From the NCBI GenBank assembly GCA_021204175.1, contig JAJPZT010000040.1:1-21113 (forward strand): a stretch of 21,113 nt of DNA. Direction: 5' to 3'. The stretch is from Clostridiales bacterium (GTDB lineage Bacteria; Bacillota; Clostridia; Lachnospirales; CAG-274). Shown piece by piece: positions 16,178-21,052 of the stretch; position 1 is the stretch's first letter, and every line of letters begins with the position of its first letter. Position numbers and translations under genes: made by a program. Below the pieces are notes generated by a model, which was not told the DNA's origin, made no database searches, and worked only from the letters and a program-made list of their open reading frames with translations.

Positions 16178-16226
16178 GAACCCGAAAAACATCGGGTAAC
16201 ATAGACAGTTTTCCATCAGGAAACTG
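16178..16226 (-). repeat. Three-hairpin module copy M1 (partial: P2+P3 only, inverted)
   Basis: On the minus strand: cagtttcc-tgat-ggaaaactg ... CCCGAtgttttTCGGGTTC. Confidence 0.55.
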
Positions 16227-16260
16227 TTGAGAATTTATTCTGTCACAAAGAGGACTAACT

Positions 16261-16417
16261 GGAACCCGAAAGAAATCGGGTGGGCTACAGCAATTTTTTC
16301 AAAGAAAAAATTGCTGTAGCCCACTTTTGCCGTACCGGAAGTTGTCTTATAGTATTCTACCGGAAAACTGCCTTGTGGAATCGAATGTCTTCTCAGTTCA
16401 CGGCAAAAGTTCTGAAC
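16261..16417 (-). repeat. Three-hairpin module copy M2 (complete, inverted, enlarged P1 loop)
   Basis: On the minus strand: TCAGAACTTTTGCCG-[72 nt]-CGGCAAAAG-TGGGC[35-nt AT-rich palindrome]GCCCA-CCCGAtttcttTCGGGTTCC. Confidence 0.7.
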
Positions 16418-16502
16418 ACGGTTATTCCTCACCTACCTATTGCATATGGAAGAGGTGTTGCTTATGATTTAAGCAGTTATCTTCGGGATTATGTCAAAGT
16501 GT

Positions 16503-16563
16503 TCAGAATTTTTCCTTGCGGAAAAGCCGGTCTTTTAGACCGTCCCGACCTCTTTCGGGTTCT
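16503..16563 (+). repeat. Three-hairpin module copy M3
   Basis: TCAGAATTTTTCC-ttgc-GGAAAAG-CCGGTCttttaGACCG-TCCCGAcctcttTCGGGTTCT. The P1 stem carries compensatory changes relative to the other copies. Confidence 0.7.
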
Positions 16564-16606
16564 GGCTGTCGGCATAGCCGACTGAGAGGTGAAATTTACC
16601 CTCTCA

Positions 16607-17044
16607 TTAATCATCACTTGTAAACGTAATGGGAATAATCATCTCCGGTAGGAAATTCACCTCATAATGGTATTTGTCAACATATGCTCCACTTCGTCGC
16701 ACCAAGCTCCACACGTTTGTTTCTTTCTTACGGTCAGAAACAAGACTTAGTTCCGCTGCTGCTCCTCTTTCAACCAAAGCCTTCCGTCTTTGGTTGAGTG
16801 CGGCTTCACCGCAAGTCTCCACTGTCACAACAAGCTCGTTTTCATCGTCATTCGAGATCGCAAAATTCCCGACCATTTCAAATAAAGGCTCGTCCGTTCT
16901 TGTGTTTATCACCGACAGTCTGCGTGTTACATTAAAATTGTCCGCTGATTTTGACAGGTTATAATTTACTCTGCTTGCCTGTCTGCACCCTCCCAGCGAT
17001 AAAGCCATAACTGCCGCAGCACATAAAACCGTTAATTTTTTCAT
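16607..17044 (-). CDS. Lipoprotein (beta-sandwich lipoprotein-like, a type seen in Firmicutes mobile elements)
   Basis: 145 aa. Signal peptide plus lipobox MKKLTVLCAAAVMALSLGGC. Strong GGAGGAGG RBS. ADNFNV...YHYEVNFLPEMIIP resembles a lipoprotein family I recall from conjugative elements (not searched). The middle of the ORF (CGEAALNQRRKALVERGAAAELS...) is encoded by repeat S1. Confidence 0.7.
   Translation of the reverse strand: MKKLTVLCAAAVMALSLGGCRQASRVNYNLSKSADNFNVTRRLSVINTRTDEPLFEMVGNFAISNDDENELVVTVETCGEAALNQRRKALVERGAAAELSLVSDRKKETNVWSLVRRSGAYVDKYHYEVNFLPEMIIPITFTSDD
16692..16813 (+). repeat. S-element copy S1 (inside the lipoprotein ORF on the opposite strand; no T-tract)
   Basis: Aligns with S2 and S3. 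CTTCGTCG...; hairpin GTTTCT/AGAAAC; CAAGAC; CTCCTCTTTC; hairpin CAACCAAAG/CTTTGGTTG; AGT; hairpin TGCGG/CCGCA. Confidence 0.65.
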
Positions 17045-17093
17045 TTTTTCCTCCTCCTTGACTTTTATAACAAATACGTATCGGCTTTATCCG

Positions 17094-17420
17094 TTAATCT
17101 CCGTTAATCCAAAGCCCTGACTTGGTTAGCTGTGCCGCTCTTTCCAGCTCCTCTGCAGTCGGCACACCCTCTTTTGTCAAAATGTCATTACATCTGCTGA
17201 AAGCTATTGTCCCAAATAATTCTCCCTTATCAATAATTCCTTTTAAGGGCTTGTTTGTGTCCTTAAGGTTAAAATGTAAATGGCGTTTACAGTTATAGGC
17301 TATTGCACTTATAACATCCAATGCTCTTAAGTCCTCTGCGGTAAGCTCCGTCTTATTAAGTACAATCTCTATACACTTTTCTAATGCCGTTTCGCCTAAA
17401 ATTCTGATGTCTTCTTCCAT
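17094..17420 (-). CDS. Hypothetical small helical protein
   Basis: Track ORF 17094..17549. Preferred start is ATG at 17420 (MEEDIRILGETALEK...) with GAGGAGGTGAGGG upstream. The longer N-terminal extension (MRRRRTRRKV...) is encoded by repeat S2 and looks non-native. Confidence 0.55.
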   Translation of the reverse strand: MEEDIRILGETALEKCIEIVLNKTELTAEDLRALDVISAIAYNCKRHLHFNLKDTNKPLKGIIDKGELFGTIAFSRCNDILTKEGVPTAEELERAAQLTKSGLWINGD

Positions 17421-17430
17421 TCCCTCACCT

Positions 17431-17552
17431 CCTCGTCGAACCTCGCTTTGCGCATTTGTTTTGGCATAAATGCCGAAACAAGATGTCGCCTGCGGGTTCT
17501 CCTCTTTCGGCGAAAGCCTTACCTTTCGCCGAGTGCGCCTGCGGCGCATTTT
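17431..17552 (+). repeat. S-element copy S2
   Basis: CCTCGTCG...; hairpin GTTTTGGC/GCCGAAAC; CAAGAT; CTCCTCTTTC; hairpin GGCGAAAG/CTTTCGCC; AGT; hairpin GCGCC-tgc-GGCGC followed by ATTTT. Stems differ from S1 and S3 by compensatory changes. Confidence 0.65.
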
Positions 17553-17809
17553 AGGCTCCCCTTGAGGGGAGCTGCCGCTGAAAGCGGCTGAGAGGTGAAC
17601 AAGCTCCTCTTCATCAAAGCTCTGGCTGCCAAAAGTTCTGTCAGAGCTTTGATTTCTCTAATTCTCGGATCAGTCAAAGTTCCTTTGCTGTTTTCTAAAG
17701 CTTTAATTGACTTAATGTTCCTCTCTGTCAAAAGTAAAATAAGCTCATCTATTTTTTTCAACATACTATCACCACCTTTCGTCGCAAGTTCCTTTTCTCT
17801 GTCTGTCAT
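17519..17809 (-). CDS. Hypothetical small helical protein (C-terminal tail read through repeat sequence)
   Basis: 96 aa. GGGAGG RBS 8 nt before ATG at 17809 (alternative MLKKIDELI start at 17764). K/E-rich helical sequence until ~ARALMKRS. The last ~30 codons run through hairpin-dense repeats (17519-17610), so the native stop is uncertain. Confidence 0.5.
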   Translation of the reverse strand: MTDREKELATKGGDSMLKKIDELILLLTERNIKSIKALENSKGTLTDPRIREIKALTELLAARALMKRSLFTSQPLSAAAPLKGSLKCAAGALGER

Positions 17810-17852
17810 TTTAAAAACCTCCCTGTTTTTATACTGAATTGTGATTTTTATC

Positions 17853-19744: not shown

Positions 19745-19873
19745 CGTCGGGTCAAACTCCGTTCGTTTGCTTCCGTCACTGCGTGCCGAAAGCAAGACTA
19801 TACTCCGTTGCCCCTCCTCTTTCAACCAAAGCCTTTCGTCTTTGGTTGAGTTGCGCCTACGGCGCTTTTTTTT
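19731..19873 (+). ncRNA. S-element copy S3: promoter-to-terminator small RNA (~140 nt)
   Basis: CCTCGTCG (19742-19749); hairpin GCTTCCG/CGAAAGC; CAAGAC; CTCCTCTTTC; hairpin CAACCAAAG/CTTTGGTTG; AGTT; GCGCC-tac-GGCGC (19853-19865) plus T8. No ORF. The minus-strand reading has stops, unlike S1 and S2. Confidence 0.6.
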
Positions 19874-19874
19874 A

Positions 19875-19930
19875 TTGCAATAAGTCGCCGTTTAGTGTAT
19901 AATTAACTTATCAATTATAACCGTGGTTAT
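19875..19930 (+). promoter_or_regulatory. Promoter and operator of the XRE/toxin-like operon
   Basis: TTGCAA (19875-19880), 17-nt spacer, TATAAT (19898-19903). Perfect palindrome ATAACC-gt-GGTTAT (19917-19930) just downstream. Confidence 0.6.
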
Positions 19931-20018
19931 ATTCTATCGCACAATTGTGAGAAAGTCAATAGCAAAATCGCGCTTTCCGATGATTTTATTAGAATGTAAC
20001 AAAAAGGGGGGAACTATT

Positions 20019-20393
20019 TTGTACAATTCTCACGATTTAGCGATTGCCATAAAAGAGACTGCAAAACAAAAGAATGTAATTATTAAAACTATGCTTCAAG
20101 AGTGTGGCTTAGGTACTAACACTATGTCATCGTTATATCATGGCAAGTCTCTTGCTTTTGACAGCTTAGCACGTATAGCCGACTATTTAGAATGTTCGGT
20201 TGATTATTTATTGGGCAGAGTTGATACTTCCGAGCTTAATGCAGATGTGGTTTTAAATGAGCCTGAGAAGAAGCTGTTGGTTCTCTTTAACCGTGTCAAC
20301 ATCGAGGGAAAAGAAAAAATAATCGAATTTGCCGACGATATGGTCTGTACAGGCAAATACCCCCTTCCCAAATCAAAAGAAACCATAGCCTAA
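20019..20393 (+). CDS. XRE-family HTH regulator (candidate antitoxin/immunity partner)
   Basis: Track ORF 19923..20393. Preferred start is TTG at 20019, 7 nt after AAGGGGGG. HTH: IKTMLQECGLGTNTMSSLYHGKSLAFDSLARIADYLECSVDYLLGR. Has a C-terminal extension. Confidence 0.8.
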   Translation: MYNSHDLAIAIKETAKQKNVIIKTMLQECGLGTNTMSSLYHGKSLAFDSLARIADYLECSVDYLLGRVDTSELNADVVLNEPEKKLLVLFNRVNIEGKEKIIEFADDMVCTGKYPLPKSKETIA

Positions 20394-20439
20394 CCCATAT
20401 CCGAATTTTGAAATAACTATAACGGAGAACACTGCACCA

Positions 20440-20799
20440 ATGAAAATTATAGGACGTATATCGAACAATATAGAACAGCTTCTTAATCTGTCCATAACAG
20501 GCGACAAAAACATATATTTGGGTGAAACAAACATAAACCATATGGCAGTTTCTCATCCCTCCGACTATCTGAAATATAAAGATGAACTGCCTAATATATT
20601 GTCCGACCACGACTATGTTGGAATTAACCCTAAAGACAATTCCTTAGAATATGTAAAAGAATATATTGTAAACGGCGAATATGTAAAAGTAGCTGTCAGA
20701 ATATCCTCCGGCAATAGGTTTTATGCCCGTTCTCTTTATGTTCTCAATAAAAACAGAGTTATAAACTTTATAAAAAAAGGCACGCTGAAAAAAACTTGA
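20440..20799 (+). CDS. PBECR-like (phage Barnase-EndoU-ColicinE5/D-RelE-like) putative nuclease toxin
   Basis: 119 aa. The pattern IYLGETNINHMAVSHPSDYLKY...ILSDHDYVG...EYVKVAVRISSGNRFYARSLYVL matches my recollection of PBECR-family small proteins that follow XRE genes in Firmicutes (not searched). Confidence 0.45.
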   Translation: MKIIGRISNNIEQLLNLSITGDKNIYLGETNINHMAVSHPSDYLKYKDELPNILSDHDYVGINPKDNSLEYVKEYIVNGEYVKVAVRISSGNRFYARSLYVLNKNRVINFIKKGTLKKT

Positions 20800-20823
20800 C
20801 AACTTATAAATTTGATGTATAAT
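20796..20823 (+). promoter_or_regulatory. Sigma-70-type promoter overlapping the stop of the PBECR-like gene
   Basis: TTGACA (20796-20801), 16-nt spacer, TATAAT (20818-20823). Confidence 0.55.
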
Positions 20824-20829
20824 AGAAGT

Positions 20830-20975
20830 GTGAAATGACATATTAATAAATAAACAAGAAGCAGAGGACGGAACGGGCAGCCGTCGCCCAAGTTGGAGAT
20901 GTAGGAATGTCACCCTGCCTATTCTTGTTTTACGTTATATGAGAGTGGATAACTTCTGTTTATCCACTCTTTTTT
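20830..20975 (+). ncRNA. Candidate small structured RNA or riboswitch-like leader, class unknown
   Basis: Closing stem aaacaagaa (20852-20860) / ttcttgttt (20922-20930). It encloses gcagagg...ccctgc and gacgg-aacgggcag-ccgtc, with possible pseudoknot GGGC/GCCC. Then intrinsic terminator agagtggata/tatccactct plus T5 (20942-20975). Confidence 0.45.
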
Positions 20976-21026
20976 ATGTAAATAGTGTTAAAAAGAAGGG
21001 AGTGCTGATAAATATGAATTGCTTAA

Positions 21027-21052
21027 TCAGAACTTTTGCTGAAAGCAAAAGC
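21027..21052 (+). repeat. Three-hairpin module copy M7 (5' part only: TCAGAAC plus P1)
   Basis: TCAGAACTTTTGC-tgaaa-GCAAAAG, then gcaaccgtagTTTTTT. No P2 or P3 recognisable before the window ends. Confidence 0.5.

Follow-up and report, generated by a model that had tools for sequence, protein, structure and literature searches.

Rickettsia palindromic elements are small structured repeats that lie within protein and RNA genes, where they are tolerable through self-folding; as a rule they keep the reading frame and persist in the gene product. Pneumococcal BOX and other Firmicute repeats are modular and structured, carry variable internal modules, and the enzyme mobilising them is not known. 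The intervening sequences of rRNA are self-folding stem-loops present in some paralogs only, which sit in fixed rRNA helices and are excised by RNase III. Here, we set beside these systems a repeated module of three hairpins (P1, P2 and P3) that we analysed in a Clostridiales bacterium, on a 21,113-nt stretch of DNA (contig JAJPZT010000040.1 of assembly GCA_021204175.1) referred to as the window. The module is a discrete unit with fixed ends, which inserts precisely and without target duplication. Its landing sites comprise hairpin-repeat mosaics between genes, a structured RNA gene and a protein-coding gene. We consider it probable that the module is mobile, non-autonomous DNA.

Seven copies lie in the window, all within 16176-21084: M2-M6 are canonical, M1 is divergent and M7 is decayed. 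The repeat as a family measures 56-157 bases, with a unit of 56-90 nt. The 3' motif, CCCGA-N6-TCGGGTTC, matched six times in the window and was absent from 100 dinucleotide-preserving shuffles, and the 5' motif, CAGAACTTTTGC, matched exactly at five positions, all past 16400 and in the island described below. A covariance model (R1; 62 positions, 20 base pairs) was trained on ten copies, namely M3 and nine from other genomes, and employed to search the whole window with filters off. It returned seven matches to the module and no credible one in 1-16000, where the best E-value was 0.075.

On the minus strand, the divergent copy M1 (16176..16230; 20.5 bits, E = 9e-5) was recognised by an exact motif match and by its fold. 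It has a P1-like hairpin (CAGTTTCC/GGAAAACTG), an altered 5' end, and an exact P3 and 3' end. The adjacent full copy M2 (16260..16415, -; E = 4e-11) carries both motifs and coincides with inverted repeat I4. Only 16260-16317(-) of its true span of 16260-16415(-) is picked up by R1; ~75 extra nucleotides lie inside the P1 loop (P1 = CTTTTGCCGT/ACGGCAAAAG), and P2 is a perfect 21-bp stem. M3 (16503..16564, +; 76.2 bits, E = 1e-22) is a canonical copy of 62 nt that was also apparent from RNA and DNA folds; its P1 is compensated (TTTTCC/GGAAAA), and no other copy has so long a closing helix (CAGAA/TTCTG). Two further plus-strand copies, M4 (17940..18027, 88 nt; 60.8 bits, E = 1e-17) and M5 (18372..18461, 90 nt; E = 4e-18, coinciding with direct repeat D7), are inserted in a large RNA and have nearly identical P2 hairpins. 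The minimal copy M6 (19628..19685, +; 58 nt, 63.9 bits, E = 1e-18) follows just 3' of a second large RNA; in the RNA fold, its P3 can combine with the adjoining CGGGCG and a T-run into a hairpin resembling a terminator. M7 (21027..21084, +; 31.7 bits, E = 2e-8, and fold) retains the TCAGAAC 5' end and P1 (21027-21052), and its P2 and P3 are degenerate. Following the gene adjoining M7 past the window end led to only one other contig, of 1.8 kb. A previous reading of this DNA from its letters alone (hereafter the sequence-only reading) had described seven like copies at these places and none in the first 16 kb. The copies and their confinement are borne out by the motif counts and the R1 search, and the P2 pairings and the compensatory P1 of M3 reappeared as described in folds, model and alignment. 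Their likeness holds for M2-M6, whereas M1 is devoid of P2 and M7 of an intact P2 and P3.

The clearest view of the module as an insert came from the two large RNAs. M4 and M5 reside in element B (17880..18490, +), a putative large structured RNA, and both sites are empty in its paralog, element C (18986..19612, +). M4 forms an exact 88-nt insert in B, TCAGAAC...GGGTTCCA, where C reads GAAGGTGT|AACGA, and its ends cannot be shifted; this first junction had been correctly drawn by the sequence-only reading. M5 splits the 3' strand of a CGCCGAG/CTCGGCG helix, so that B reads ccgtaaaCTC|M5|GGCG and C reads ccgtaaaTTC|GGCG. Here too the proposed filled and empty states were found, with the junction better placed at ccgtaaaYtc|ggcg than at ccgtaaat|tcggcg as suggested before. 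Divergence between B and C at this point makes the second junction less certain.

An independent case was found in a protein-coding gene of another genome. Contig L171 of the metagenome-assembled genome (MAG) MO.7_4 carries two copies of 63 and 64 nt, antisense within a Sin-type serine resolvase gene. Excising both gives back an open reading frame (ORF) of 207 amino acids, which aligned without gaps to the Sin/Bin3 resolvase 2r0q (E = 9e-31) and with seven intact homologs at 86-94% identity. Intact paralogs are present on contig L210 of the same MAG and on contig L209 of MAG C.2_10, and DNA alignment to them revealed exactly two insertions. Site a holds a clean TCAGAAC...GGGTTCCA with ends as in M4. 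The L171 gene is dead, because the 63-nt insert adds a stop codon and the 64-nt insert a frameshift. At both resolvase sites the two bases 5' of the element are KT, and the intact paralogs have AG and AT; the true start of the element may thus lie 1-2 nt further 5', or the target may be remodelled upon integration.

A third pair of sites was provided by L203 of MAG C.2_10, with two paralogous small loci, one filled and one empty. M2 occupies the same site in a locus homologous to L203, with a wholly different P2 and an expanded P1 loop. No target-site duplication was found at the B/C site or at resolvase sites a and b, where no direct repeat of at least 3 nt borders the inserts. Taken together, the exact insert in B, the resolvase inserts and the filled and empty loci of L203 support the proposal of the sequence-only reading, namely a miniature mobile element whose hairpins are subterminal and whose insertion leaves no target duplication. 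Further copies were found at unrelated loci in three other genomes, and filled and empty sites are paired at B/C, in the resolvase gene and at L203. The outcome that the sequence-only reading had named against mobility, copies confined to fixed positions in homologs of the large RNA, is not what we observed, which favours a mobile element.

The architecture of the module is summarised by the consensus 5'-TCAGAA(C)-P1-C-P2-U-P3-TTC(C/T)N-3'. P1 consists of 7 bp with an invariant TTTT/AAAA core, and its outer pairs vary (GC/GC, CC/GG, GAC/GTC, GCC/GGC). P2 is free in sequence and length, ranging from 4 bp with a 3-5-nt loop to 21 bp, and P3 follows CCCGA-NNTCTT-TCGGG with the variants TCGGA/TCCGA and CCCAA/TTGGG. 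The ends are conserved and the middle is variable as long as it pairs, TCAGAA and the P3 loop TCTT each being present in 15/16 copies. Across these 16 copies from four genomes, standard pairs fill 99% of the pair cells. Changes on both sides were observed at 10/20 pairs, compared to 4.2 +/- 1.2 in column shuffles, together with 22 further pair types; these values were reached by 0/500 shuffles and are to be read with the caveat that the copies are related and the alignment was fitted to the model, their similarity being high enough to trust the alignment. As a control, slid 3' partners lowered pairing to 29-60%. Hairpins P1, P2 and P3 are under structural selection, as backed by these compensatory changes. 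P1 begins 6-7 nt from the 5' end and P3 stops 4-5 nt from the 3' end, and there are no terminal inverted repeats beyond GAAC/GTTC, the 4 nt common to both ends.

To follow the module beyond the window, 185,579 species-representative genomes were scanned with the pattern TCAGAAC-N30-60-CCCGA-N6-TCGGGTTC. Among the 58 matches, 7 were true modules, located at six loci in the Clostridiales MAGs MO.7_4 (GCA_021200955), C.2_10 (GCA_021203425) and 'Eubacterium sp.' U_127185 (contigs JAJBVU01...), and the covariance model and later look-ups added five more copies. These copies adjoin ordinary genes, named by eye from their translations as ftsEX-type, glycosyltransferase, pilin/sortase, glutamine synthetase and smpB, and usually sit within mosaics of companion repeats. 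Some occupy plasmid-like contigs with RepA_N, or with mobC and a relaxase, and the resolvase contigs of the carrier MAGs hold three (L171), one (L209) and one (L210). In IMG/VR, searches with the P3 motif alone or with CAGAAY...P3 gave 120+ and 25 matches, all due to chance, with the other hairpins absent. The three matches to TCAGAACTTTT-N33-63-TCTTTCGGGTTC in JGI metagenomes were all chance by covariance-model score, and BLASTN with the consensus module retrieved nothing from plasmid and phage collections. In Rfam, cmscan assigned no family to any copy, either at the gathering threshold or at E <= 10, which at the sensitivity of this search excludes Rfam families, ribozymes and tRNA-like elements; ARAGORN detected no tRNA or tmRNA on the window, and a literature search found no description of the module. 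As far as exact-pattern scans tell, the family is rare and lineage-restricted.

How might such a unit move? The module encodes nothing, and the enzyme would accordingly come from elsewhere and act in trans; because the ends are conserved and the middle is free, it would read both ends. Since the ends are hairpins and there are neither inverted repeats nor a duplication, we infer, tentatively and as the likeliest option, a route through a single-stranded DNA (ssDNA) intermediate. The folded P3 would be the feature read by an HUH-type enzyme, be it a TnpA as in the 'peel and paste' of IS200/IS605, a RAYT (REP-associated tyrosine transposase; REP, repetitive extragenic palindrome) or a relaxase, which would nick the DNA a few nucleotides 3' of this hairpin and treat the 5' end in the same way. 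This ssDNA route is possible, with considerable doubt. The three hairpins would fold locally, and a short GAA/TTC pairing may join both ends; with local folding, an insertion in a structured RNA such as B would add a side branch and leave the host fold unbroken. In a broader version, the module would be the non-autonomous form within a class of mobile elements whose enzyme belongs to none of the known transposase families; an HUH protein of the plasmid relaxase or Rep type, or a small serine recombinase, might for example move it in trans. Its multi-hairpin junction would close on itself so that the module can settle harmlessly in structured RNA genes. We regard this version as unlikely.

Several points weigh against a mobile element of the proposed type. 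Pfam identified no transposase or integrase among the seven island ORFs of the window. None was seen in six 8-kb MAG loci, whose ORFs were judged by eye with no family search, nor among the called genes of the resolvase and relaxase contigs with precomputed Pfam assignments. Neither a Y1 HUH transposase nor a full-length parent with the same ends was found in the 21-kb window or in ~100 kb of related loci, and no module had its 5' and 3' halves split around an ORF, M7 being decayed and offering no left end. The end hairpins P1 (CTTTTGC/GCAAAAG, variable) and P3 (CCCGA/TCGGG, conserved) differ in sequence and loop, unlike IS608-type elements, which have alike end hairpins. The 5' flank shows no fixed tetranucleotide: GT precedes 9/19 copies (mostly as GGTGT) and T lies immediately 5' in 13/19; GGTGT/GTGT accounts for about half, several of these GGTGT-flanked copies being one composite unit, and the others have TTTTT, CCCGT, ACTC, CTAC, GC or AA. 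Moreover, the resolvase junctions differ from the intact paralogs by 1-3 insert-adjacent bases, and site b, with 2-3 such bases, is known to +/-2 nt. The family counts only ~19 copies in 4 genomes, several of which are one composite of module and neighbouring hairpin and have perhaps spread together. As for the structure, the closing helix P0 (GAA/TTC, three pairs) is invariant and has no backing from covariation, and the four-way junction into which RNAfold arranges M3 and M4 is plausible but unproven. Nor does folding separate RNA from DNA as the selected form. DNA parameters gave folds of the same quality for either strand (z from -4.1 to -6.2) and G-U pairs occupy two cells only, too few for strand assignment, so that structure alone cannot tell RNA from ssDNA, or one strand from the other.

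An alternative already offered by the sequence-only reading is a modular RNA domain. In this case, the module would be a cis-acting RNA element, i.e., a stabiliser, a terminator helper or a protein-binding domain, or a domain of B and C, spread and lost by ordinary recombination or duplication. Its position just 3' of a gene and in sense at four MAG loci would suit such a role, as would the covarying hairpins, the terminator-like hairpin that M6 forms with its flank ahead of a T-run, and the sense orientation of M4 and M5 in RNA B, where a self-folding branch is tolerated. It is difficult to reconcile with the two antisense copies that bring a stop and a frameshift into resolvase coding sequence, and with identical, sharply defined insert ends at unrelated sites. 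Both orientations occur within 350 nt of the window, and Rfam offers no match up to E <= 10. Homologs of B/C surround none of the copies outside the window, so that a domain of that RNA is not supported as the origin of the copies, and we judge the cis-acting explanation improbable. A similarly low probability is given to the module being a unit of a host-domesticated mosaic, similar to REP and bacterial interspersed mosaic elements (BIMEs), with a single-copy RAYT-type gene and a host role in supercoiling or mRNA decay instead of that of a selfish insertion-sequence derivative. Both the window and MAG U_127185 show the module embedded among CTCCCCTTGAGGGGAG, a GC hairpin followed by GAGAGGTG, and a hairpin followed by GAAAGAGGAG, and these units combine in varied order and orientation, as BIMEs do. 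However, the sequences read have no GTAG/CGTC head, no RAYT was seen, and a unit of 56-90 nt with three hairpins contrasts with a single 20-40-nt palindrome; the copy number is apparently low, and insertions occur within genes.

The company of plasmid genes raises the idea that a plasmid-borne MOB relaxase or the Sin-like serine resolvase itself moves the module, as a stray recombination or nicking site on small mobilisable plasmids. Three Sin-like resolvase contigs of carrier MAGs hold modules (L171, L209 and L210), on L209 mobC and relaxase genes lie ~860 nt from a copy, and relaxase nic sites usually place the cut a short distance 3' of a hairpin. This explanation appears more doubtful still, given that homologous resolvase and relaxase contigs of other MAGs are free of the module, that most copies lie in ordinary chromosomal intergenic DNA, and that the junctions do not share the dinucleotide expected from a serine-recombinase crossover; small resolvases are not known to move DNA by transposition. 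The order of M3-M7, all on the plus strand and spaced 430-1440 nt apart with small ORFs between them, together with the AAC...GTT within the ends, could be taken for attC-like sites in a degenerate integron-type cassette array. This is already contradicted, and highly improbable: the cores TCAGAAC and GTTCCR misfit RYYYAAC/GTTRRRY, there are three separate hairpins and not one imperfect stem, M1 and M2 are inverted, and the intervening ORFs are mostly on the opposite strand. Furthermore, M4 and M5 are insertions within one RNA gene, copies in other genomes stand alone between housekeeping genes, and the Pfam search of the island ORFs disclosed no integrase. A self-cleaving ribozyme of small size is the least credible of all. 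The compact junction of several helices and the conserved unpaired bases would be in line with one, but these bases are found at the element ends and in the P3 loop and not in a junction core. Moreover, both strands of the module fold equally well, and it matches no Rfam ribozyme family at E <= 10.

The host RNAs themselves deserve a closer description. Without its modules B comprises ~430 nt, and C comprises 620 nt. Both are closed by terminal helices, a long one in B (ATTGTAATTAAGG/CCTTAATTTACAAT) and one of 28 nt in C (TATGCTATAGCTATGTTAAGAC/GTCTTAACATAGCTATAGCATA), which differ in sequence; C also coincides with inverted repeat I2. The inner CGCCGAG/CTCGGCG helix is present in both, and an internal hairpin is compensated between them (CAGCCGA/TCGGCTG in B, TAACCAA/TTGGTTA in C). 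A 41-nt internal unit (CGCATTTATRCGAAGTAACAAATTTGAGATAT) occurs in C with one extra copy. Each RNA lies 3' of a strong sigma-70-like promoter (TTGCAA/TTGCAT-N17-TATAAT). No Rfam family was assigned to B or C by cmscan at the gathering score or at E <= 10, a 33-mer conserved between B and C had no match in IMG/VR, and BLASTN of RNA B against phages was likewise negative. A promoter-like TTGCAAT-N16-TATAAT was seen three times, at 18951-18979 ahead of RNA C, at 19696-19724 ahead of a short hairpin-rich transcript, and at 19875-19903 ahead of an operon of XRE and PBECR3 genes.

The module copies of the window lie in an island of at least 5 kb (15930-21113) that follows secE-nusG-rplK-rplA and occupies the place where rplJ-rplL would usually be expected; the window ends without rplJ. 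The seven island ORFs searched with Pfam include small genes of phage or toxin type, encoding a Phage_VG64 family protein, a PBECR3 nuclease and three XRE-type helix-turn-helix proteins. Two short-read contigs from this organism (L146 and L145) stop 71 and 150 nt past the rplA stop, before the first copy. Another, L144, ends inside M4, and L210 of MAG MO.7_4 also ends within a copy. Just 3' of the XRE/PBECR3 gene pair, a skipping-rope RNA (RF02924; 20857-20926, +) scored 46.2 bits against a gathering score of 36.7, the only Rfam match in the window, and is followed by a terminator-like hairpin.

Hairpin repeats of other kinds are interleaved with the modules, namely CTCCCCTTGAGGGGAG, a GC hairpin followed by GAGAGGTG, and a hairpin followed by CTCCTCTTTC. 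Directly after M3, a companion mosaic unit (16565..16591, +) consists of the GC hairpin CTGTCGGC ATA GCCGAC and the Shine-Dalgarno-like GAGAGGTG, and the same unit also follows the module in two other genomes. It belongs to a second repeat family, built of CTCCCCTTGAGGGGAG, a variable GC hairpin and (T/G)GAGAGGTG, which we found at 17556-17597 and 16565-16591 and, in many copies, in L169 and L186. This family is abundant in MAG U_127185. It frequently encloses the module, which then comes immediately after GAGGGTGT. Its GAGAGGTG end, like the GAAAGAGGAG end, resembles a Shine-Dalgarno sequence, with the anti-Shine-Dalgarno on the other strand, and such ends sometimes fall at the expected ribosome-binding site of the downstream gene. 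A further repeat of 62 nt, CTCCTCTTTCAACCAAAGCCTTYCGTCTTTGGTTGAGT, occurs at 16738-16799 and 19790-19851 with 85% identity. One of its copies lies within the 3' half of the ORF of the Phage_VG64 family protein (16607-17044, -), of which Pfam covers residues 1-79 only; the C-terminal part of this ORF may for this reason be repeat-derived. In a similar manner, mosaic hairpin repeats at 17519-17600(-) encode the last ~27 codons of a 96-aa ORF (17519-17809), whose C-terminus as annotated is probably artefactual, owing to repeats inserted where the gene ends. The segment 16420-16500 matches a small locus of MAG C.2_10 (L203 213-383 and 683-883) with a mini-ORF, MEEVLLMI / MKEVMLMI; in L203 it is followed by a hydrophobic 31-aa ORF resembling a type I toxin, and the window has M3 and the companion hairpin there. 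In L186 (6395-7205), a DUF559-like gene, named by eye, lies between ~200-bp mosaic direct repeats that each contain a module copy, which suggests that the gene was inserted into the repeat cluster or duplicated along with it.

The small repeats of gut- and rumen-type Clostridia are poorly charted, and the module adds to them a clearly bounded family with neither target duplication nor terminal repeats. Its exact ends and the three pairs of filled and empty sites make a search for the mobilising enzyme feasible. It also presents a hazard for annotation, as it breaks short-read assemblies (seen at the ends of L144 and L210), extends or interrupts ORFs and inflates the apparent divergence of paralogous non-coding RNAs. 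Conversely, it may be used as a handle on host RNAs: the presence of M4 and M5 in B and their absence from C mark positions of B that tolerate insertion.

Among known classes, palindrome-associated transposable elements (PATEs), the non-autonomous derivatives of IS200/IS605, share many traits with the module. Both are short and non-coding, have neither terminal inverted repeats nor target duplication, carry hairpins near both ends, combine conserved ends with a free interior, and insert precisely and in both orientations. Unlike PATEs, the module has unrelated end hairpins P1 and P3, a third and highly variable middle hairpin, a loosely conserved 5' flank and short hairpin-to-end distances (6-7 and 4-5 nt); the window and the ~100 kb of related loci yielded neither a cognate TnpA nor a full-length parent. 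In our tally of PATE features, three were present and one was absent. The IS200/IS605 likeness proposed by the sequence-only reading is thus retained only as a resemblance, as no Y1 enzyme was seen in the available sequences, P1 and P3 are unlike and the 5' base is loosely conserved.

REP repeats, BIMEs and REPINs (REP doublets forming hairpins), which are associated with RAYT (e.g., PMC2817692, PMC3116915, PMC3733652), resemble the module as extragenic hairpin repeats in mosaics with compensatory hairpins, and are thought to move via ssDNA as proposed here for the module. In contrast to REPs and REPINs, i.e., a 20-40-nt palindrome or an inverted doublet thereof with a GTAG/CGTC head, the module has three hairpins, is headless and solitary, has few copies and also lies within genes. 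Classical miniature inverted-repeat transposable elements (MITEs), mobilised by DDE enzymes, have terminal inverted repeats of ~10 bp or more and a target duplication, and the module has neither. REP/REPIN, the classical MITE with terminal inverted repeats and integron attC thus each have a defining feature that was looked for here and is absent from the module. Rickettsia palindromic elements differ by host phylum and have no sequence relation to the module, both of whose resolvase insertions destroy the frame. BOX differs in its A-B-C module order and complementary A and C ends, and sequence similarity to the module would not be expected. Unlike rRNA intervening sequences, the module also occurs outside RNA genes. 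Membership in PATE, REP/BIME/REPIN, the Rickettsia palindromic elements or BOX is accordingly not established, and the module, without a match in Rfam or any collection searched, represents a new family among MITE-, REP- and PATE-like repeats.

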